The position numbers were made by a program, and so were the translations under genes. Source: Patescibacteria group bacterium (GTDB lineage: Bacteria > Patescibacteriota > Minisyncoccia > Phycocordibacterales > PALSA-1337). Taken from it: a stretch of DNA of 64,000 bases. The stretch lies in NCBI GenBank assembly GCA_038061795.1, contig JBBTYL010000003.1, forward strand, positions 41 to 64,040. Direction: 5' to 3'. Within the stretch, counting starts at the first letter, position 1, and each line of letters starts with the position of its first letter. Positions 19,448-61,774 of the stretch are shown here, piece by piece. The notes beneath the pieces are model-generated. The model worked only from the letters and a program-made list of their open reading frames with translations. It was not told where the DNA came from and searched no databases.

Positions 19448-22285
19448 CTATTGCACCACGATATTGATGAGCTTATTTTTGACGACAATCACTTTTTTAA
19501 TGACGGCGCCCTTGGTCCATTTCGCTATTTCAGGCTTATCTAAAGCCATTTTTTGGATAGTAGCATCATCAGTATCAGCTGCGCATTCTAGCGTTCCCCT
19601 CATTTTGCCATTCACTTGAATCGTCATCGTCACGGTTGATTCTGTCAGCTTTTTCGGATCAAATGTTGGCCAGACGCTCGCATGCACTGATGCCTTATTT
19701 CCTAGAATTGCCCAAAGCTCCTCGGCAACATGCGGTGCGAATGGGGCCAGAAGCTGAACAAGTATCTCATAGTGAGCTTTTGAAATTCTTTCTTCTTTCT
19801 CAAGATCATTCACTGCGATCATCATCGCGCTGATTGCAGTATTGAATTTCATATCCTCGATATCCGAAGAGACTTTTTTAATGGTTTTGTGGATGATCGT
19901 CTCGATTCTTTCGTTACCACCCTGTCCAACCTTTTCTTGAAGTTTCCATACGCGCTCAATGAACCTTCGTGACCCAGCAATCGTGTTCGTATCCCACGCA
20001 ATAGCCTGATCGAAAGGGCCCATGAACATCTCGTGGATGCGGAGAGCATCCGCCCCGATAGTCTTTATGATGTTGTCTGGATTGATGACATTGCCTTTCG
20101 ATTTTGACATCTTCTCTCCGCCTTCGGCAAGTATGAGGCCGTGCGAGGTGCGCTTCTTGTATGGCTCGCTTGTCGGAACAAGTCCAAGGTCAAAAAGAAA
20201 TTTGTGCCAAAAGCGAGAATAAAGGAGGTGGAGGGTCGTGTGCTCCATTCCCCCGTTATACCAATCGACAGGAGTCCAGTATTTGAGATTTTTAGGGTCG
20301 GCAAAGGCCTTCCTGTTCTTCGGATCAGCGTAACGGAGATAATACCAGCTTGAACCAGCCCAGTTCGGCATGGTATCGGTCTCCCTCTTTGCGGGACTCT
20401 TGCAGGCTGGACATTTCGTATTGACCCATTTTTCAATCGAGGCGAGCGGACTTTCTCCTGTCTCTGTAGGCGCATAATTCTTCACTTTTGGAAGCTCGAC
20501 TGGCAATTGCTCCTCTGGCACGGGAACTATTCCGCACTTTGCACAATGAACTACTGGTATCGGTTCTCCCCAGTATCTTTGACGGGAGAATATCCAGTCG
20601 CGGAGCTTGAATTTGGTGACCCATTGTCCGCCTGCGAATGCAGTGATTTCTTTTTTAGCTGATTCAGAGTCCTTGCCGTTGAATTGGGCGGAGTTAATCA
20701 TGAGTCCTGGCTCGACTGAAGCCCAGTTATCATTCATCAATCTATGCATCCAAATATCAAGCTCACCACATTGCATGGTATCCTTCCGAATATCCTTTTG
20801 ATCAAGCCACACGAGTTCATGAATTTCATTCTCTTCGGCTGAAATTTCATTGCGTTCTTCGTTTTCCAATTCAAAATACGCAACATTAAAATACGCAATT
20901 CTGTTTACATCCTTGTGGGCAGCGAAAAATTCACTCCTGACTTTTCCGCCGAGCACCTTTATAAATTTAAGATTCTTATAGCCTGTCTCTTCAAGCGCTT
21001 CTCTTTTTGCGGCCTCTACAACATCTTCATTGCCCTCTACTCCACCAACAATAAATGTGGTCCATGGCTGCTTCTTCCACTTCAAACAAAGTATTTTCTG
21101 ATTTTTTGGGTCTCGAATAATTACTTGGACCGCATTCCTTTCTATTACCTCCTTTCCAGGCCTGTGCGGATTCGTCTTATCAGTTCTCAATGGCATCACG
21201 ACATCCTTTACTCCCAACCCGTATTTCTTCGCAAAGTCCCAATCCCTTTCATCATGCGCAGGCACCGCCATCACCGCTCCAGTTCCATAATCGGCAAGCA
21301 CGTAGTCTGCAATCCAAATCGGAACCTCCTCGTTGTTTACAGGATTGATTGCCTTGATGCCTTTGAGTTCGACCCCGGTTTTAGCAGCTTTTGCATTTGT
21401 TCTCTCTTCCTCGTCCTTTTCTCTGACAGCCTTTATGTATTGTGCAACCTCGATCGTATTGTCAGCATGGCTGATGAATTCATCGACAAAGGCATGTTCA
21501 GGGGCGAGAACCACATAAGTGACGCCGAAAAGAGTATCCGGCCGCGTCGTAAACACTTTTATTTTCTTATCGCTGCCCTTGATCGGAAATTCTATTTCCG
21601 CTCCTTCGCTTTTTCCAATCCAATTCCTCTGCTGAATCTTTATCTTTTCAAGGAAATCAGTCTCGTCCAGATCCTTATCGAGCCTGTCTGCATATTTCGT
21701 GATGGCAAGCATCCACTGCTCTTTCTCTTTTTGCTCAACTTTCGTCCCACAACGCTCGCAGCAGCCATCTACGACCTCTTCGTTGGCGAGGCCGATCATG
21801 TCCTTCGGACACCAGTTTATCGTAAGCTTTTTTTTGTATGCCAGGCCTTTTTTCAAGAACTGCAAAAAGATCCACTGCGTCCATCTGTAGTATTTCGGAT
21901 CAGTCGTATTTATTTCCCTGGACCAATCGAAAGAAAATCCGAGGGCCTTGAGCTGGCGTCGGAACGTATCAGTATTGTTCTTTGTCACGATTGAAGGCTG
22001 AATGCCGGTCTTGATAGCATAATTCTCTGTAGGAAGCCCGAAAGCATCCCAGCCGATCGGATAGAGAACGTTATAGCCTTCTCTGCGTCGCTTGCGGGAA
22101 ATGATGTCCATAGCAGTATTGCTGCGGATATGTCCGACATGTAGACCGTCACCGGATGGGTATGGAAATTCGATGAGAGTGAAGAACTTCTTTTTCTTAG
22201 GATCTTCCTTGACTTTGTTCGGCTTCTTGGACTCCCAAGCCTTCTGCCATTTTTTCTCGATCCTGTCGTGGTCGTACGGGTTCAT
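19448..22285 (-). CDS. leuS: Leucine--tRNA ligase with a Nudix domain inserted in the CP1 editing domain
   Basis: HVGH and KMSKS class I motifs. CP1 motifs TTRPDTLFG and GTGAVMAVPAHDERDWDFAKKYGL. A perfect Nudix box GGVEGNEDVVEAAKREALEETGY at residues 414-436. Confidence 0.95.
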   Translation of the reverse strand: MNPYDHDRIEKKWQKAWESKKPNKVKEDPKKKKFFTLIEFPYPSGDGLHVGHIRSNTAMDIISRKRRREGYNVLYPIGWDAFGLPTENYAIKTGIQPSIVTKNNTDTFRRQLKALGFSFDWSREINTTDPKYYRWTQWIFLQFLKKGLAYKKKLTINWCPKDMIGLANEEVVDGCCERCGTKVEQKEKEQWMLAITKYADRLDKDLDETDFLEKIKIQQRNWIGKSEGAEIEFPIKGSDKKIKVFTTRPDTLFGVTYVVLAPEHAFVDEFISHADNTIEVAQYIKAVREKDEEERTNAKAAKTGVELKGIKAINPVNNEEVPIWIADYVLADYGTGAVMAVPAHDERDWDFAKKYGLGVKDVVMPLRTDKTNPHRPGKEVIERNAVQVIIRDPKNQKILCLKWKKQPWTTFIVGGVEGNEDVVEAAKREALEETGYKNLKFIKVLGGKVRSEFFAAHKDVNRIAYFNVAYFELENEERNEISAEENEIHELVWLDQKDIRKDTMQCGELDIWMHRLMNDNWASVEPGLMINSAQFNGKDSESAKKEITAFAGGQWVTKFKLRDWIFSRQRYWGEPIPVVHCAKCGIVPVPEEQLPVELPKVKNYAPTETGESPLASIEKWVNTKCPACKSPAKRETDTMPNWAGSSWYYLRYADPKNRKAFADPKNLKYWTPVDWYNGGMEHTTLHLLYSRFWHKFLFDLGLVPTSEPYKKRTSHGLILAEGGEKMSKSKGNVINPDNIIKTIGADALRIHEMFMGPFDQAIAWDTNTIAGSRRFIERVWKLQEKVGQGGNERIETIIHKTIKKVSSDIEDMKFNTAISAMMIAVNDLEKEERISKAHYEILVQLLAPFAPHVAEELWAILGNKASVHASVWPTFDPKKLTESTVTMTIQVNGKMRGTLECAADTDDATIQKMALDKPEIAKWTKGAVIKKVIVVKNKLINIVVQ

Positions 22286-42507: not shown

Positions 42508-42541
42508 GCCGCTGGCATCAACCAGCGGCTTATCTTTATTT
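42508..42541 (+). terminator. Plus-strand rho-independent terminator
   Basis: GCCGCUGG-N6-CCAGCGGC followed by UUAUCUUUAUUU. The minus-strand reading has no U-tract. Confidence 0.6.
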
Positions 42542-43534
42542 CTTTCGCAAGAGGACTTTTTGCACTGCTTTCTTTATATCCTTCTCGCCCATTCCATAGT
42601 GTTCAAGAAGTTCATCGGGCGTTCCTGATTGGCCAAATTTATTCTTTACGCCAATAAATTCTATCGGTACTGGAAAATGCTGTGCTAGACATTCCGCAAC
42701 AGCTGATCCCATTCCTCCAGCAATCTGATGTTCTTCGACTGTGACTATTGCTCCCGCCTCATGCGCAAGCTTCCAGACGGCGTCTTCATCGAGCGGCTTG
42801 ATCGTCGCTAAATTCAAGACCTTTACGCGCTTCCCTTCCTTTTCCAATTCTTGTGCAACTTTCAACGCTTTATAAACAAGAGCTCCTGTGGCAATAATTC
42901 CAATTTCTGCTTTGCCTGATTTAGGTTCAAACAATACTTGAGCTTTCCCAATTTCGAAAGGAGTTTCTTCGGTCGTAATGACTGGCGTTTTCTCACGCGC
43001 AAGACGTATATATGTTGGAAATTTTGTCTTGGCACAGGCGATCGTTGCTTTTTTCGCTTCTATGGAATCGCATGGCGAAATGACGACCATGTTCGGAATC
43101 ACTCTCGTTATAGCGAGATCCTCGATAGCCTGATGTGTTCCTCCATCTGGTCCTACGGAGATGCCCGCATGAGAACCAGCGATCTTTACCGGTCGATCAT
43201 TATAGCAAATCGTCGTTCGGATCTGTTCCCAATTACGTCCAGGGCTGAACATCGCATATGAAGTAATGAAAGGGATCTTGCTCATAGCTGCCATTCCCGA
43301 AGCGACACTTGCAAGATTCTGTTCTGCAACGCCCATTTCGATGAATCGCTCTGGAAATTTATTCTTAAAAAGATGCATTTGGGTAGATTCCGTAAGATCA
43401 GCACAAAGTCCGACAACGTTTTTATCTAACTCTCCCGCCTTCAAGAGGCCCTCGCCGAAACCTTTGCGGATGGGAACTTGTTCAACATCGATCTCGAGCA
43501 GCTTTGGGTTGAGTTTTTGGGAGAGGCTTATCAT
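42536..43534 (-). CDS. Transketolase, C-terminal (pyrimidine-binding plus C-terminal domain) subunit
   Basis: FIEMGVAEQNLASVASGMA..., SHAGISVGPDGGTHQAIEDLA. 332 aa, typical of split transketolases. Confidence 0.9.
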   Translation of the reverse strand: MISLSQKLNPKLLEIDVEQVPIRKGFGEGLLKAGELDKNVVGLCADLTESTQMHLFKNKFPERFIEMGVAEQNLASVASGMAAMSKIPFITSYAMFSPGRNWEQIRTTICYNDRPVKIAGSHAGISVGPDGGTHQAIEDLAITRVIPNMVVISPCDSIEAKKATIACAKTKFPTYIRLAREKTPVITTEETPFEIGKAQVLFEPKSGKAEIGIIATGALVYKALKVAQELEKEGKRVKVLNLATIKPLDEDAVWKLAHEAGAIVTVEEHQIAGGMGSAVAECLAQHFPVPIEFIGVKNKFGQSGTPDELLEHYGMGEKDIKKAVQKVLLRKK

Positions 43535-43537
43535 ATT

Positions 43538-43804
43538 TTAAAGCATAGATAGGTTCACAAACGCTATGATGATGGAAAAGGCAATCAAGGTTCCTCCCTC
43601 GATCCTCCTCATGGAATAATCTTTATTTGTCTGCTTGTAGTTGTAACTTGAATCCTTATTGAAAATGAGGACAAGACCGAGCCCTAGGCTGACAAAAAGA
43701 ATCAGATAGAACCAGAACGAGGTCACATCCTTTATTATGAAAAGATAGATTGCGTTTGCAAGAAAGCCTAATTTAAGTGCAATTTCAAAGTATTTCATAT
43801 GCAC
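43538..43804 (-). CDS. Small 3-TM membrane protein (88 aa)
   Basis: Hydrophobic ORF whose stop lies 3 nt before the start of the tkt C-terminal subunit. Confidence 0.45.
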   Translation of the reverse strand: MHMKYFEIALKLGFLANAIYLFIIKDVTSFWFYLILFVSLGLGLVLIFNKDSSYNYKQTNKDYSMRRIEGGTLIAFSIIIAFVNLSML

Positions 43805-43835
43805 TTAATTATAACCTATATTCGCACAAAACAAG

Positions 43836-44117
43836 CTATATGACGGTGAGTTTCAATCCAAGACCTGAAGTGACTTTTTGAAGAAATGACAAAGTAGGGT
43901 TCGTGCGTCCAGATTCAAAGCGCGCAAGAGCTGACTGGGCAATGCCGAGTTTTTGGGCCAATTGCCTTTGGGTAAGTTTTTTCTCAATCCGTGCCTTGAC
44001 GAGAGCATTATAAATCTTGAATTCGAGCTCTAGGCTATCATAAGTTTTCTTATTCTCCGGGTCCTTAAGAAATTCTTCCATGAATTCTTTATGCGTTGTC
44101 ATTTTATTTGTTTTCAT
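43836..44117 (-). CDS. XRE-family HTH antitoxin (HigA-like)
   Basis: KKLTQRQLAQKLGIAQSALARFESGRTNPTLSFLQKV is a Cro/C1 HTH. Immediately downstream of the Gp49-like toxin gene. Confidence 0.8.
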   Translation of the reverse strand: MKTNKMTTHKEFMEEFLKDPENKKTYDSLELEFKIYNALVKARIEKKLTQRQLAQKLGIAQSALARFESGRTNPTLSFLQKVTSGLGLKLTVI

Positions 44118-44143
44118 GTTGGTATGATAACATATATGTTATA

Positions 44144-44464
44144 TTAAGCAAGCTTATTAATTTCTTTTTGAACTCTTCTGGCATACTTGATATCCTTCAC
44201 ATCTATCTTCCAAGCTTTTTTGATAAAGCCATGAATAATGCACACTTTGCCGTTATGAAAAATATACAGTATCCTAACTTTTTTCTTTCCGAGTGTCCTT
44301 AATTCAAATAATCCTCCGCCTAGGCTTTTAGAATCAGGCATACCAATCAAATTTCCATATTCTTCAAGCAAACCTATTGTCTTTCTTGTTCGAGATGCTG
44401 AAATAGCATCAAGACTTCTTATAAATCCTTTTACTTTTTCATTATAGTAAATAACTTCCATCAC
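44144..44464 (-). CDS. Type II toxin, phage Gp49-like / HigB-RelE superfamily
   Basis: GGGLFELRTLGKKKVRILYIFHNGKVCIIHGFIKKAWKI pattern typical of Gp49/DUF891 toxins. Toxin-first order as in higBA. Confidence 0.72.
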   Translation of the reverse strand: MMEVIYYNEKVKGFIRSLDAISASRTRKTIGLLEEYGNLIGMPDSKSLGGGLFELRTLGKKKVRILYIFHNGKVCIIHGFIKKAWKIDVKDIKYARRVQKEINKLA

Positions 44465-44567
44465 CCAACTCTAGCAGAGCCAGATGAAGAAAAACCTAAG
44501 AAGTTCTAAAATCCTGATAAATTTTTGATTGAGCGATAAGAACTAGTAAGCGTCTAGATACCCTATT

Positions 44568-44870
44568 CTATAAGCTTCTATTCCTATTCTTAATTTTTCC
44601 GTAGAAATAACCTACAAGCACGCCTATACCAATGTAAACTAGTAAAATAATTACAAAGGCAATAATAAGTCCTAGAAAACCTGCTGCAGAATGGCCGAGC
44701 AAACTTAAATGAAATCCGGAGTATTTTCCAAGAAGATTAAGTGCATCAAGCGGGAAAATTGTAAGATCGTATCTTATGACGAAAGGGGGGATATACAATA
44801 CTGCAATAATTAAATATATTATTGTAAATACAATTCCTCCCTTCAACCAATATCTTTTTGTGTTTTGCAT
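44568..44870 (-). CDS. Small 3-TM membrane protein (100 aa)
   Basis: Hydrophobic ORF starting 9 nt after the stop of the tkt N-terminal subunit. Confidence 0.45.
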   Translation of the reverse strand: MQNTKRYWLKGGIVFTIIYLIIAVLYIPPFVIRYDLTIFPLDALNLLGKYSGFHLSLLGHSAAGFLGLIIAFVIILLVYIGIGVLVGYFYGKIKNRNRSL

Positions 44871-44879
44871 ATAATTTAA

Positions 44880-45734
44880 TTATACTTTAATTCCTAACGC
44901 CTTCCTCGCAATACTTATCTCTTCCGGCGTCCCTGGCGGCTTGCCGTGCCATTCGAACATGCGCTCGAAAGCTGGAATTCCTTTCGAAGAAATCGTATTC
45001 GCGATAATGACTGACGGCTTGTCGAAAACTGCAAGCGCCTGGGTATACGCTTGATCAATTGCCCTAAAACTATGCCCGTCTATCTCCTGCACATGCCAGT
45101 TGAAAGCGGCCCACTTCGCTCCAAGCGGGTCCAAAGGCATGATGTCTTCGGTAAATCCATCGATCTGGATGTTATTCCTATCAACAAAAACCGCCACATT
45201 CTGTAATTTTTCCTTTCCTGCAAGCATGATTGCCTCCCAATTCTGCCCTTCATCAAGCTCTCCGTCTCCGACAAGACAAATGAACTGCTTTCCTGAAGTT
45301 TTTTCAAAATCAATGCGTTCTGCGAGCGCCATTCCGACGAGTTGCGACAAACCAGAGCCAAGGGGACCTGAAGAATTCTCCAGCGCAGGCAAATATTCCC
45401 GGTGAGGATGTCCCTGAAGCTTGCTGCCGAATTTTCGTAGAGTTTTCAGCTCTGAAAGAGGAAAATATCCCGCATGCGCCATAGTCGCGTAAAGGACTGG
45501 GCAAATATGTCCATTGGAAAGAACGAGGCGGTCCCGGTATTCCCAGTCGGGCTTCTTCGGATCATGTTTGAGCGCATGGAAATACAGATATGTGAAAATA
45601 TCAGCCATATCAAGTGGTCCGGCAGTATGGCCGGACTTGGCTTCTATGAGCATCTCGATAATCGACTGCCTTATAGCATGCGCTTTTTCAAAAAGGAATT
45701 GGGCTTTTTCGTCTGTGAGAGGTTGAAGGGCCAT
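44880..45734 (-). CDS. Transketolase, N-terminal (thiamine-diphosphate-binding) subunit
   Basis: SGHTAGPLDMADIFTYLYF, RDRLVLSNGHICPVLYA, GDGELDEGQNWEA. Start set at MALQPL. Confidence 0.9.
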   Translation of the reverse strand: MALQPLTDEKAQFLFEKAHAIRQSIIEMLIEAKSGHTAGPLDMADIFTYLYFHALKHDPKKPDWEYRDRLVLSNGHICPVLYATMAHAGYFPLSELKTLRKFGSKLQGHPHREYLPALENSSGPLGSGLSQLVGMALAERIDFEKTSGKQFICLVGDGELDEGQNWEAIMLAGKEKLQNVAVFVDRNNIQIDGFTEDIMPLDPLGAKWAAFNWHVQEIDGHSFRAIDQAYTQALAVFDKPSVIIANTISSKGIPAFERMFEWHGKPPGTPEEISIARKALGIKV

Positions 45735-45755
45735 GATTACCCTTAAGTATATCAC

Positions 45756-56265: not shown

Positions 56266-57828
56266 CTAGAAAAGATTTCTGAAGAAATTAAAAATCTTCT
56301 GGAAAAATCCTCCGGACGCATCAAGGGCGCTTGCTGTCTGTGTCTGTTGCGGTTCCTGAATTGCTGGAATTTCTGCTATTATGTTTTCTGGTTCAACAAA
56401 CCCGACCTCAATATTGCTTGGCGGTACGAACTCTTCATCATCAGATGACGACAAATTCCTCTTGTAGCTTTCGATTGCCGCAAGCTGCTCAGGGGTCAAA
56501 GCGAACGAAGACTTGCAATAGATTTCATTGATCTTTTTCTTTGTAGTGTATGACACGATTCCGGAAGCCGTCTGGAGACCCCATGGAAGCATGACATCTT
56601 CAATATACTTTGTCTGGAATGCCTTCACTGCATCAAGCGTGACCTGATCAAACACGCCGTCTATTGCGACATCGATTCCTTCAGAATTCAAAAGGAATGT
56701 CTGAAGCTTTGTGACCTCCGCTGGATCATTGCTGCTTTTTATATTGAGATAATCTTTTATATACGTGCAGCTTCCGATGTCAGAAAGTGCTGGCAGGCTG
56801 GTCGCTGATGACACGATGGTTGTCTTTCTAGAACTGCCAGTTGAACTACTTCCTGAACGCGTGTTCTGGCTTTCTGCGGCAATGATTTCATCGCCATTCG
56901 AACCCTGTCCGTCGGGATCTCCCTCAGGACCATTTGATCCTTGTCCGTTTGGAATTATGCCATCTCCTTCGTTGCCGTTACTTCCCTGACCATTCGGAAT
57001 GATTCCGTCACCCTCATCATTATCATTGCCACCCTGGCCATTAGGAATGATTCCTCCGCCCCCTTCATCGCCTTGTCCTCCGCCATTTGGGATATAGGTA
57101 ACATCATTATAGGTTAAAGTGCAGCTATATATTACTCCTGGCAAAGCTGTTCCTACACACCCTTCATATGAAATTGAATACGAAGCGTTTTCAGAGCCAG
57201 TTACATTGAATACTGAAGGATCAATCACGACATCAATAGAAGCTGTTGATCCGGGAAAAGATGCCTGTGAAGGATTTCCAGCGTCAATAGAGACAATGAA
57301 GTCAGAAGCAGAAGCGCCACCTGCATCGTCATTGATTACATTTGTAACTACGGAAATAGTTGAAGTTGCAACAACAAATGAATCGTCTGTTGCTTCTTCA
57401 TCTACACGGATTTTAATATCAAAGTATCCTGTCTCTCCACAAATAATTTCTCCGCAAACGAGAATGACCTTATATCGATCAGCAGGAACACTGGACATAT
57501 CGAAAGCTGTAATGATACGGGAAGTCGAACCTCCTACAACCATTGTAGACATCGTGCCACCAGAAGCTGGTGGCAAAGATTCTTGAGCTTCTGTTCTTAG
57601 AGACAATGACACTGACTCAGAAAAAGCATCGGATAAAGAAATCGTAAAAGCTTCATCAGTGTAATAAATTCCACCTTCCACTGGCGAATTAACTGTCACA
57701 AAAGCAGGTTCTATAGCAGCTTTTGCTGAAAAAGGAGCAATTCCTAAAAAGAGTCCCAAAATAAGCACCATTATCAGAGTCCTGCATGAAAAATTCTTCA
57801 TAAATTGATTTCGTTCGTTATTCTTCAT
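56266..57828 (-). CDS. Secreted repeat protein with a C-terminal peptidoglycan-binding (PG_binding_1-like) domain
   Basis: Signal peptide LIMVLILGLFLGIAPFSAKA. (G)IIPNGQGSNG.EGD tandem repeats. LQTFLLNSEGIDVAIDGVFDQVTLDAVKAFQ PG-binding motif. Start ambiguous (57801, 57828 or 57867). Confidence 0.68.
   Translation of the reverse strand: MKNNERNQFMKNFSCRTLIMVLILGLFLGIAPFSAKAAIEPAFVTVNSPVEGGIYYTDEAFTISLSDAFSESVSLSLRTEAQESLPPASGGTMSTMVVGGSTSRIITAFDMSSVPADRYKVILVCGEIICGETGYFDIKIRVDEEATDDSFVVATSTISVVTNVINDDAGGASASDFIVSIDAGNPSQASFPGSTASIDVVIDPSVFNVTGSENASYSISYEGCVGTALPGVIYSCTLTYNDVTYIPNGGGQGDEGGGGIIPNGQGGNDNDEGDGIIPNGQGSNGNEGDGIIPNGQGSNGPEGDPDGQGSNGDEIIAAESQNTRSGSSSTGSSRKTTIVSSATSLPALSDIGSCTYIKDYLNIKSSNDPAEVTKLQTFLLNSEGIDVAIDGVFDQVTLDAVKAFQTKYIEDVMLPWGLQTASGIVSYTTKKKINEIYCKSSFALTPEQLAAIESYKRNLSSSDDEEFVPPSNIEVGFVEPENIIAEIPAIQEPQQTQTASALDASGGFFQKIFNFFRNLF
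56884..57096 (-). repeat. In-frame tandem repeats (period about 48-51 nt) encoding IIPNGQG(S/G)N(G/D)x(E/D)GD
   Basis: Four to five copies are visible in both the translation and the DNA. Confidence 0.75.
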
Positions 57829-57838
57829 TAATGCTTGA

Positions 57839-57867
57839 TTCATATCACCTTTTAGGTAAAATGTCAA
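57839..57867 (-). promoter_or_regulatory. Promoter-like TTGACA-N17-TATGAA upstream of the repeat-protein gene
   Basis: Perfect -35 at 57862..57867 with a 17-nt spacer. The -10 is imperfect (last base A). Confidence 0.35.
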
Positions 57868-58675: not shown

Positions 58676-58711
58676 GCAAATAAAACAAAGCCGCTGGGTA
58701 AGCAGCGGCTT
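58676..58711 (-). terminator. Rho-independent terminator after the dehydroquinase-like gene
   Basis: Minus strand AAGCCGCUG-N6-CAGCGGCUU followed by UGUUUUAUUUG. Confidence 0.6.
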
Positions 58712-58731: not shown

Positions 58732-59487
58732 TCACATAACGCCTCGCAGTTTGAGATCCTCTCGAACGTCATGGTCGTCAATTAATTCGTAGATAGACAC
58801 CTGGCCGGCAGCGGTAGGATTAAGCCCTGGCACGTATCCATACGTCGCCCATGACCCGTCGCGGACGCATCGAAATCGTTCCCGCGTTGCAAGTTCTCCC
58901 ATCGGGAAAGCGATGAGAGGCGTGTTGCCGCCATAGCGCCGCAAAGCGTCTCTTACAAGCTTGCAGTCCCCTTCTTTGACCGCCTTACTGACGAACTTGA
59001 AGAAAGCGCAGAGCGGAAAAGTCTCGAATTCCCTCACGGCTTCTTCTGGCTGGTCAGGCGTACCCTAGAGACGATGATCTGAAATACCGATTTTTTTCCA
59101 AGAAAACGGCGGGGTTAAATTTCGATCAATCACCCACCGCGCCAGATCGACGGCCCAATCAACAAACACATTTGAAGATGGATTTGCAATCTTCATGACA
59201 ATCGGGTCAGGAAGCGAATTCCAAAATTTCCATTGATCTTCAGGGGTAATGACGCGCATTCCTCCCTGCGATTTAGGACGCAATGCAAGAATCATGGGCT
59301 TGTCTGAAAAAAGCCCGTACAGATGTGCATAGAGAAAACTGATAAGATCAGTATTCCGCATGCCATCTAGACGAATCTCCACTGATGTGGCCACGCACGT
59401 GCGCCAGTAAACGGAGATGAGTTTTGAACTTTCGGAAGGGCACATCGAGGCGATGACCCCGAAATAAGGAGTAGTGTTAATGAGCAT
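58732..59487 (-). pseudogene. Type I 3-dehydroquinate dehydratase-like gene interrupted by one in-frame TAG (59065..59067)
   Basis: SVEIRLDG, KPMILALRPKSQGG, ISDHRL*GTP, FFKFVSKA, LIAFPMGELATRERF and AAGQVSIYEL align by eye with AroD motifs. The two track ORFs are in the same frame, separated only by TAG. Confidence 0.6.
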
Positions 59488-59497
59488 AATACTCTAC

Positions 59498-59526
59498 TTT
59501 ATACAACTAACCTACTCTATAGTCAA
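59498..59526 (-). promoter_or_regulatory. Promoter TTGACT-N17-TATAAA upstream of the dehydroquinase-like gene
   Basis: -35 at 59521..59526 and -10 at 59498..59503. The ATG lies 10 nt after the -10. Confidence 0.5.
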
Positions 59527-59607
59527 CTTGACTACAAAAAGCATATTAAGTAAGACACCCCGCAGCTTGCACAGCCGCGGGGTGGTGAAATCGGTTGATG
59601 TCATGGT

Positions 59608-60381
59608 TTACTTCTTGGGGCTGGCTGTCAAAACGCGAAGGCGTTCGATACCGGCCCTGATGCAGACGGCCTCGGGACTCAAAGCTGTAACGTCACGCAA
59701 CTCCAGGACAACCTTGCCGACGGTTTGCTCAACGAGTTCGACCGACAGGCCAAACGCATCGGCAACGTCTTTGACATTCAACTTGGGGTTGGTCTGCAGA
59801 TACGAGTGAATGAGCAACGCGATCATCGGGTGGACTTCGCCGTTGCTGACGAACTTCAGAAGTTTCGGCTTCGGTGAGTCTGATGGTGAAGCTGGTGCCT
59901 GCACACCGCGTTTCTTGTACGGACGACGGGTCTTTTTCCCAATCTTCTTGGCGCGGACTGTGCGAGGTTTCTTGCCTGCAGGGTTTTCATCACCTGCACC
60001 ACTAGCACCCTCTTCATCCTTGAACTTGATGTCATCAACTTCGCCGAACTTCTTCACAACGGCAGCCAAGGTGGCGTCAGCCATCGCTTTGAAGTTCTTG
60101 CCGTAGTCCGAATCAGCTTCGTAAAACTCACGAGCAGAATCCGTCAAGAGATGCACATTTGCTGGGCTGCAATTGCCGAAATGTGGACACATGACTTTCT
60201 TGTCATACTCCAATTTATCAATGACAACAAATACGGCCACGCGACGGATGAACCCAACCATTTTGTTCTTGCCTCCGGCGACAATGTCTTCCTTGGTCGT
60301 GCCTGCTTCTTTTGCTGACTCGCTCTCGAGTGAAAAAGCAAAAATAAACTCGATGAGCTCGTTTAGTGTCTTTGTCTTCAT
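59608..60381 (-). CDS. Hypothetical protein with a central Lys/Arg/Pro-rich segment and a possible C-terminal HTH (257 aa), G+C-rich
   Basis: Long ORF followed by the hairpin 59556..59584. No family recognised. Confidence 0.5.
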   Translation of the reverse strand: MKTKTLNELIEFIFAFSLESESAKEAGTTKEDIVAGGKNKMVGFIRRVAVFVVIDKLEYDKKVMCPHFGNCSPANVHLLTDSAREFYEADSDYGKNFKAMADATLAAVVKKFGEVDDIKFKDEEGASGAGDENPAGKKPRTVRAKKIGKKTRRPYKKRGVQAPASPSDSPKPKLLKFVSNGEVHPMIALLIHSYLQTNPKLNVKDVADAFGLSVELVEQTVGKVVLELRDVTALSPEAVCIRAGIERLRVLTASPKK

Positions 60382-60418
60382 GTACTATCTTTTTCTTGGT
60401 TTACTGCGATTATGTTTC

Positions 60419-61132
60419 CTACACTTTCGGTATCTTAAAAAAGAAGGGTTGTTTTACTTTTGGAATTACCTTCTTCTCGGCCTGTCCATTTTTCACTGGT
60501 TCAGACCCCACTACCTCAACAACCGGAACAGCCGGCTGTGGAACGGGTGCGACTTCGTTGGAGTTTTCCTCCTTTTGTATTCTGCTGTAATTTTTACTGA
60601 ATATGAACTTATGGCTGTTGGTCCTTTGCTTTTTGGGAGCCTTAGGAAACGCCTCCTGTCCATCCTCATCCTCAAATGAAGGCGCCATGTCCGAAGCCCA
60701 ATTCAGATTGGGCAATTCGACTTTGATGCCATCAAGCGTTTCTCCAGTCCGATACCTTTTGGGATTAAACTGGATGATCTCAACATGGTCTGAAACCGGC
60801 ACACAACGAAGTGTCCAATTTCTTGAAAAACCAAAGCATTCGGAAAAGTTCATTGGCCCTTCCCGCGCTCCAAAGATGAGAGACGGTTTCATCGAACCGT
60901 ATTCGAATTCCTCCATGGTACCGTCGGCAGTATTGAGCGCAACGAGCCTGAATTGGACCGCGCGCTTGTAACTTCCGAGATAAAATGGGACTGTCCAGTA
61001 TTCAAGGAAAATCCTCAAGCCAGACAGCGGAATGCTTCCATCAAAGTACGGACTCTCGTGGGTCGTAACAACCGAAGTAACCTCAAGAACTGTTTTGCCA
61101 GCTCTCGAAGACAACGTATTTTTTGTTTTCAT
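60419..61132 (-). CDS. Hypothetical protein (237 aa from MKTKNTL), G+C-rich
   Basis: Long ORF. The track starts it at 61189. No family recognised. Confidence 0.45.
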   Translation of the reverse strand: MKTKNTLSSRAGKTVLEVTSVVTTHESPYFDGSIPLSGLRIFLEYWTVPFYLGSYKRAVQFRLVALNTADGTMEEFEYGSMKPSLIFGAREGPMNFSECFGFSRNWTLRCVPVSDHVEIIQFNPKRYRTGETLDGIKVELPNLNWASDMAPSFEDEDGQEAFPKAPKKQRTNSHKFIFSKNYSRIQKEENSNEVAPVPQPAVPVVEVVGSEPVKNGQAEKKVIPKVKQPFFFKIPKV

Positions 61133-61240
61133 GAGCTGATCTTTCTGTCCTTGCGGACGGTAAGGGGTTTGCTGGCGTAACGCTATCACACCCAGACTAG
61201 TTAGGTCAAACCGAAGTTTTCTGCAATATGCATAAAAATA

Positions 61241-61774
61241 CTAGAGCGGAATATTTGACTCTCCCTCGAAGTTTTGTACGACTTCACCGAACTGCATGCT
61301 TTGTGAATCAAAAAGAAGCCAGATACTTTTTCCAATTGTTGGAGGAGTTGTGAATGGATCAGTTGGTGCTCGATCAGCATAATTTACGACCACAATCTTT
61401 CCCTTGCCTTTTTCTGTAGTCTGAGGAGCTATGCGATCACCAAGAAATAGCGCCTGTCCTCCGACATATCCTCGTTCGGTGTTGAGGGCTGCTACGACAT
61501 AATAGAAAGTTCCGCTTCCTCCTTTATTTTGAGTAATCAGGAAAACAACATCATCACGACCGTCATTATCAAGATCAGTCTTCAATTCGTTTCCGAAATA
61601 TTTAGTTTCATTACCAAGCCTGACTCGCTCACCTTCAATGATGAATTCAGCGTCCTTGTAGTCCGCAGCCACATAACCCTGTTTCTGCTCATAGATATAG
61701 TCGTTGAATGCGAAAAAAGCTGCAGCAAGCAGGACAAGTGCCGAGAAAATGATTAAAAGTTTTTGGGCGTTCAT
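61241..61774 (-). CDS. Secreted hypothetical protein with an FG-GAP/VCBS-like DxDxDGxxD motif
   Basis: Signal peptide MNAQKLLIIFSALVLLAAAFFA. TDLDNDGRDDVVFL calcium-binding-type motif. Confidence 0.5.
   Translation of the reverse strand: MNAQKLLIIFSALVLLAAAFFAFNDYIYEQKQGYVAADYKDAEFIIEGERVRLGNETKYFGNELKTDLDNDGRDDVVFLITQNKGGSGTFYYVVAALNTERGYVGGQALFLGDRIAPQTTEKGKGKIVVVNYADRAPTDPFTTPPTIGKSIWLLFDSQSMQFGEVVQNFEGESNIPL

Follow-up and report, generated by a model that had tools for sequence, protein, structure and literature searches.

A type I dehydroquinase-like gene interrupted by a single amber codon in a groundwater population of Patescibacteria

Type I 3-dehydroquinate dehydratases (AroD; for instance the structures 3m7w and 1qfe, and the dehydroquinase domain of the Arabidopsis DHQ-SDH protein, 2gpt) are (beta/alpha)8 barrels of ~250 amino acids (aa). 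In the numbering of the Salmonella enterica enzyme, Lys170 forms the Schiff base with the substrate and His143 acts as general acid/base. Patescibacteria generally lack the synthesis of aromatic amino acids. Here we describe a distant relative of these enzymes, encoded on the minus strand (59487..58732) of a 64,000-nucleotide (nt) stretch of DNA from a Patescibacteria group bacterium (assembly GCA_038061795.1, contig JBBTYL010000003.1, positions 41 to 64,040; the whole stretch is referred to as the window) and interrupted by one in-frame TAG codon.

The family to which this gene belongs resembles type I AroD in its length of ~250 aa, in its predicted (beta/alpha)8 fold and in possessing equivalents of Lys170, His143, Glu46/Arg48, Arg82, Arg213 and Gln236. 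Unlike AroD, its members are stand-alone genes, without an aro operon in the examined loci; identity with characterised enzymes is only ~20%, and the joined window protein stays below the cutoff of the AroD equivalog profile, TIGR01093. The family members also differ in having Gln at the position of Glu86, and the window copy differs in being interrupted by a stop codon. Probably, this copy is a young nonsense pseudogene of a type I dehydroquinase-like gene of the Patescibacteria lineage, apparently fixed in the population that carries it.

The interrupted reading frame and its intact orthologues

Direct translation of the minus strand from 59487 to 58732 yields a single 251-codon frame composed of 140 codons, TAG, 110 codons and a terminal TGA. 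The TAG at codon 141 is the only in-frame interruption, and the two open reading frames (ORFs) listed for this region, 59065..59487 and 58732..59037, are the pieces of that frame as a mechanical ORF finder reports them. In the public record the pieces appear as separate proteins, the upstream one as MEK7463915.1 ('hypothetical protein AAB610_02205', an exact match to the 140-aa piece) and a GTG-started, 101-aa part of the downstream one as MEK7463914.1 ('hypothetical protein AAB610_02200'). Other gene callers report the downstream part as a 56-aa fragment or make no call. A preliminary description of the window, made from the sequence by eye, had proposed one gene rather than two; the single frame and a Pfam match of the joined protein that runs across the stop (see below) bear this out. 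The gene is composed as follows, with strands placed according to a structural model of the orthologue P0003:

59068..59487, minus strand: upstream piece of 140 codons, spanning beta1-beta5 and holding the equivalents of Glu46, Arg48, Arg82 and His143
59065..59067, minus strand: in-frame amber codon TAG (codon 141), identical in the six loci fetched with the window allele (L001-L006) and Glu in the orthologues
58735..59064, minus strand: downstream piece of 110 open codons, with a T-P motif and the equivalents of Lys170, Arg213 and Gln236
58732..58734, minus strand: original stop codon TGA, read directly from the sequence

The amber codon is reproducible. Eleven contigs encode the 140-aa piece; their sources are several assemblies of groundwater well H41 (Hainich), plus a second NCBI assembly and two Logan assemblies. 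TAG-bearing contigs derive from different samples and filter fractions, at coverages of 4x to 44x. Over the 1,020 bases around the gene, five of the six fetched loci are 100% identical. The sixth (L003) represents a strain with 99.68% identity over 9.7 kilobases (kb), with zero differences within the gene and the same TAG. When the seven proteins that one-base changes of codon 141 would restore (E, Q, K, Y, W, S or L) were looked up by exact match, none was present among ~15 billion public proteins, a collection that contains both the 140-aa and the 101-aa piece; such a look-up is blind to intact alleles that differ elsewhere, and the earlier word-indexed homologue search was not exhaustive for these.

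In this organism TAG acts as an ordinary stop, because it closes 19 of the 65 other genes of the window, including that of the conserved leucyl-tRNA synthetase, with many of these codons directly preceding the next gene. Among 66 non-overlapping ORFs of 90 codons or more, chosen greedily, the stops were TAA (38), TAG (20) and TGA (8). Reading TAG as a sense codon did not produce a more sensible gene map. No tRNA with the anticodon CUA was found in ~85 kb of genome, comprising the window and other loci of the same genome, where tRNA-Ala(UGC) and tRNA-Gln(UUG) were the only tRNAs (an Rfam scan of the window likewise returned only two tRNAs), and the annotated neighbourhoods contained no pyl genes.

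A comparison with sibling genomes, proposed at the outset, turned up two intact counterparts, each 56% identical to the joined window protein over the full length: P0002 (253 aa, locus L007) from another Patescibacteria metagenome-assembled genome and P0003 (255 aa, locus L008) from the same Hainich samples. Both carry Glu at the site of the stop, encoded by GAG in the former and by GAA in the latter, which makes a single G-to-T substitution in a Glu codon the simplest history. A scan of a genome collection with three close sequences recovered only the L007 genome (as L015), so that collection does not include the species of the window.

The gene order downstream of P0003 is that of the window: a 176-aa gene, a large secreted peptidoglycan-binding protein, NDH-2, MacB/FtsX, an ABC ATPase, YknX, two small genes and a sigma factor, with protein identities of 68-94% among the shared syntenic genes. 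Contigs of the two populations co-occur in sample ERZ1292619, at 44x and 21x coverage. Given this syntenic, intact orthologue in a co-occurring sibling species, the gene is orthologous and ancestral, that is, inherited within the lineage. On the upstream side, the locus has been rearranged. Both orthologue loci have a rhodanese/UPF0176 gene, TrhO-like by its Pfam domains, immediately 5' of the dehydroquinase-like gene (L008 9103..9948; L007 2493..3347), and the window has in its place three minus-strand genes without a Pfam family (59608..61774; 257, 256 and 177 aa). For the 177-aa gene, L008 has a counterpart of 83% identity ~3 kb farther in the upstream direction.

Fold, catalytic residues and the wider subfamily

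To the eye, the joined ORFs had looked like a type I 3-dehydroquinate dehydratase, and the profile search agrees. The joined protein matched Pfam DHquinase_I (PF01487) with 36.1 bits (E-value 9.4e-9; gathering cutoff 22.2) in a single alignment of residues 34-235 with profile positions 25-226 of 230, which crosses the stop. Taken alone, the two pieces scored 16.1 and 20.0 bits, both under the cutoff; the orthologues carry a precomputed PF01487 match. Against the NCBIfam aroD equivalog TIGR01093, the joined protein reached 40.1 bits compared with a cutoff of 139.3, marking it as a remote relative within the type I dehydroquinase superfamily rather than a typical AroD.

Fold was assessed on the orthologue P0003, 56% identical to the window protein, in place of the window protein itself. 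AlphaFold2, supplied with a 25-member alignment, returned an alternating beta/alpha barrel (predicted local distance difference test score, pLDDT, 94.9; predicted template modelling score, pTM, 0.92); prediction from a two-sequence alignment (pLDDT 43.7) was useless. In a Foldseek search of the PDB, the top 50 matches to the model were all type I dehydroquinases, with E-values down to 6e-12 and template modelling (TM) scores of 0.61-0.73. They came from S. enterica, S. typhi, C. difficile, S. aureus, A. aeolicus and Arabidopsis (DHQ-SDH), and entries of the K170M and E86A mutants were among them. At the sequence level, the subfamily profile matched AroD sequences of the PDB with E-values of ~1e-21.

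Residues were mapped by profile alignment to the S. enterica AroD chain 3m7w_A, which by our own count carries three extra N-terminal residues. The family His aligned with His143 and the family Lys with Lys170. Of the remaining active-site positions, Glu46 and Arg48 correspond to the motif 'EIRLD', Arg82 to 'LTLR', Arg213 to 'SR' and Gln236 to 'APGQ'. Alignment to Arabidopsis DHQ-SDH (2gpt) selected the same His and Lys, which we count as His214 and Lys241 there. The two catalytic codons lie on either side of the stop:

59074..59076, minus strand: His138 codon (ISDHRL), corresponding to the general acid/base His143; 24 of 25 subfamily members have His here
58996..58998, minus strand: Lys164 codon (FFKFV), corresponding to Lys170, the Schiff-base residue; nearly invariant in the subfamily and downstream of the stop

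The proposal that the catalytic residues are intact therefore holds for His138 and Lys164 but not for the third member of the classical triad. At the position of Glu86, the partner of His143, both the window protein and the subfamily consensus have Gln (consensus Glu-Gln-Gly-Gly, window Ser-Gln-Gly-Gly); one position before it, most members carry Glu, the window Ser and P0002 Val. Glu86 is reportedly less critical than once thought (Light et al. 2013). The amber codon had been placed at the 'FHKTP' motif of AroD, and the profile alignment confirms this, setting it on the His of the motif, His146 of the S. enterica enzyme. It thus follows the His143 equivalent by three codons and precedes the Lys170 equivalent. 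Since the latter and, per the P0003 model, strands beta6-beta8 lie past the stop, the 140-aa product would be unable to act as a dehydroquinase.

An exhaustive HMMER search of 1.84 billion cluster representatives placed the gene in a subfamily of ~30 clusters (E-values 1e-62 to 1e-21), most of whose members are 245-270 aa long; past a score gap, canonical AroD and AroD-AroE proteins followed with at most 82 bits. Members comprise P0002-P0030 and P0153-P0156. In P0006, Tyr replaces the catalytic His, and P0030 appears to be without the Lys. The position of the stop is variable across the subfamily (E, N, K, D, T, A and others), and the residues of the T-P motif are conserved in 20 and 18, respectively, of 25 members. 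In two further loci, L013 and L014, the gene again stands alone, surrounded by ComEC, RNase H, RecJ, HIT, PGK, TIM and pilin genes typical of Patescibacteria; L014 has a chorismate mutase ~7 kb away. None of the examined subfamily loci contained an aro operon. A literature search returned no paper on this subfamily in Patescibacteria.

Transcription signals, signs of decay and rival explanations

The preliminary description had credited the gene with a good promoter and a terminator. Both were recovered, and the promoter core, TTGACT-N17-TATAA(A/C), is kept in both orthologue loci:

59521..59526, minus strand: -35 hexamer TTGACT, by direct reading; identical in L008 and L007
59498..59503, minus strand: -10 hexamer TATAAA, 17 nt after the -35 hexamer and 10 nt before the ATG
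58678..58711, minus strand: intrinsic terminator, in which a T run comes after a G+C-rich hairpin of 9 bp (58711..58688); the L008 orthologue is followed by a comparable hairpin with T run
59556..59584, minus strand: terminator hairpin of the upstream 257-aa gene, from a terminator scan

The promoter region lies at 59488..59530 (minus strand) in the window, 9960..10000 in L008 and 3358..3398 in L007. In the two orthologue loci, the signal reads TTGACT-N17-TATAAC and ends 9 nt before the ATG, with different spacer sequences. The consensus promoter scanner omits the window site, as it accepts only -10 hexamers that end in T. Judging from the short distance between promoter and ATG and the lack of a Shine-Dalgarno sequence in three species, we infer that the mRNA of this gene family is leaderless or near-leaderless in this lineage. 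Because the upstream 257-aa gene terminates at 59584..59556, the dehydroquinase-like gene would form a transcription unit of its own, with its signals intact.

The gene had also been suspected of horizontal acquisition on account of a G+C-rich region. The rise in G+C is real but mild (0.501, compared with a mean of 0.439 and a standard deviation of 0.042 for the 64 other window genes; z = 1.5, two genes higher), and it is common to the orthologues, which likewise exceed their own loci (0.509 versus 0.432 and 0.467 versus 0.425). Raised G+C therefore appears to be a trait of the family and not a mark of recent transfer. Together with the conserved gene order around the sibling orthologue, and a subfamily of ~30 clusters whose examined loci look like those of Patescibacteria, this disfavours a recent horizontal acquisition. 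The observation that the window holds no other shikimate-pathway gene stood, as judged from annotation: none is annotated in the window from ~6 kb onward or in the 5.5 kb past its end.

Signs of decay beyond the stop itself were sought in three-taxon branch lengths, computed from pairwise amino-acid differences, with two flanking genes as controls:

Dehydroquinase-like gene: window 0.256, L007 0.186, L008 0.186
Flanking 176-aa gene: window 0.114, L007 0.103, L008 0.20
C-terminal part of the secreted protein: window 0.083, L007 0.167, L008 0.11

The window lineage is ~two-fold faster in the dehydroquinase-like gene only, and the excess is seen in both halves. We also counted unique changes at positions where both siblings match a residue present in 70% or more of 23 less closely related members. 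The window protein has 2 such changes at 27 positions upstream of the stop and 4 at 29 downstream, compared with 1 of 26 and 0 of 25 in P0003 and 0 of 25 in either part of P0002. The branch lengths and the counts hint weakly at relaxed constraint in the window lineage.

Several of these observations weigh against decay. The acceleration is small, rests on three taxa, two control genes and an uncertain tree, and is present in both halves of the gene. Most of the window branch must predate the stop, because a neutral change of 0.25 per residue would have produced several more stops. Furthermore, the gene has no second disabling mutation, and its promoter and terminator are conserved; continued function would look alike. 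The time available bears on the last point. Of all possible single substitutions in the gene, 4.2% create a stop, so that the probability that a neutral copy has acquired no second one falls to 50% at ~0.02 substitutions per site and to 5% at ~0.1 (indels ignored), whereas the strains that share the TAG have diverged by 0.003. An otherwise intact frame is expected of a young pseudogene at this divergence and hence is not evidence of function. Inside the gene these strains show 0 differences, which leaves no estimate of the ratio of nonsynonymous to synonymous substitution rates (dN/dS) between them.

Two rival explanations would do away with the interruption as such, and nothing was found in favour of either. 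That the codon is an artefact of sequencing or assembly, or reflects a rare variant captured in the assembly, is scarcely credible given concordant sequences in ENA, NCBI and Logan assemblies, one of them from a slightly diverged strain, and zero revertant proteins in the public collection. The preliminary description had ranked error among the less likely explanations; with the same TAG in six assemblies, several samples and a 0.32%-diverged strain, it is effectively excluded, and an assembly error was rejected on seven concordant sequences that carry the codon. Equally far-fetched is a reassigned TAG, be it through an alternative genetic code or pyrrolysine, in view of the 19 of 65 other genes that end in TAG, many with the next gene immediately after, a gene map that becomes no better with TAG as sense, and annotated neighbourhoods free of pyl genes. 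An alternative code was rejected on stop-codon usage and ORF maps.

The other rivals accept the stop and would rescue the enzyme. Amber read-through, by a suppressor tRNA encoded elsewhere or by near-cognate decoding, would supply some full-length 251-aa enzyme, and it would account for 110 open downstream codons that keep the Lys170, Arg213 and Gln236 equivalents, for the conserved promoter and terminator, and for an allele common to two strains; at a position as variable as this one in the subfamily, nearly any inserted residue would be tolerated. We nevertheless regard it as improbable. General suppression would be costly where TAG ends ~30% of window genes, no CUA-anticodon tRNA was found in the ~85 kb of genome, and the stop context, CTC-TAG-G, shows no obvious signal, although no dedicated test, such as of downstream folding, was made. 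The intactness of the gene is, moreover, fully expected of a young pseudogene, and its lineage evolves somewhat faster. Slightly less probable again is a broader version, in which the subfamily may act outside the shikimate pathway and its member here be made at a low level by amber read-through. More doubtful than either is an enzyme in two pieces, in which the 140-aa piece and a separately started 101-aa piece (GTG at 59037) would assemble as a split (beta/alpha)8 barrel. Both pieces are open and predicted by gene callers, and split TIM barrels are able to reassemble in principle. However, the sequence upstream of the GTG, CCAGAAGAAGCC, contains nothing like a Shine-Dalgarno sequence; residues 142-150, including the conserved T-P motif, would be in neither piece; and a neighbouring gene pair does not occur among 32 retrieved subfamily sequences, short matches such as P0021 (147 aa) looking like fragments at contig ends. 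Nothing positive supports either read-through or a two-piece enzyme.

A young nonsense pseudogene thus remains the best explanation, in keeping with the earlier suggestion of a gene caught early in decay: one lesion, set against intact syntenic orthologues. Under this explanation, codon 141, formerly a Glu codon like the GAG and GAA of the orthologues, would have become TAG through a G-to-T change; translation would end after 140 residues, without dehydroquinase activity; and the mutant allele would have become fixed, as it appears to be, in the sampled groundwater population. Promoter, terminator and the 110 downstream codons would be intact only for lack of time for further damage. Function would accordingly have been lost recently. 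In having one disabling substitution with the rest of the frame and its signals intact, an allele apparently fixed in the population and a weak sign of relaxed constraint, the gene resembles ordinary single-hit, recent nonsense pseudogenes of bacteria, and nothing about it is distinctive.

Other features of the window and implications of the loss

Three other features of the window are noted here. The 945-aa leucyl-tRNA synthetase contains a NUDIX domain (PF00293, 55 bits, E-value 9.5e-15) at residues 383-501, an unusual insertion that follows the CP1 editing domain (220-370) and precedes the second half of the catalytic core (554-758). The secreted protein downstream of the dehydroquinase-like gene combines a peptidoglycan-binding domain with repeats of the GIIPNGQG(S/G)N type; its called length depends on the strain assembly (511 aa in L001 and L004, 501 aa in L002 and L003), which suggests variation in repeat number. 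Finally, transketolase is encoded by separate N-terminal and C-terminal genes, both in the window and in locus L011, with four small genes between the halves, including a Gp49/HTH_3 pair that resembles a toxin-antitoxin module.

19448..22285, minus strand: leucyl-tRNA synthetase with NUDIX insertion
56266..57867, minus strand: secreted peptidoglycan-binding protein with repeats
~42536..45755, minus strand: split transketolase (3642..6840 in L011)

The finding is real but ordinary. For the public record, AAB610_02205 and AAB610_02200 are one interrupted gene and should be marked as a pseudogene. The sole unusual point is the host, as the highly reduced genomes of Patescibacteria are usually thought to be poor in pseudogenes.

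For the biology of these bacteria, the locus offers a small, clean example of ongoing gene loss in an already reduced genome of the Patescibacteria, alongside a co-occurring sibling population whose orthologue is intact. Its loss in one population suggests that the gene is dispensable there. More interesting than the stop codon is the question of what a divergent, stand-alone enzyme of this kind does in bacteria that mostly lack aromatic amino-acid synthesis.

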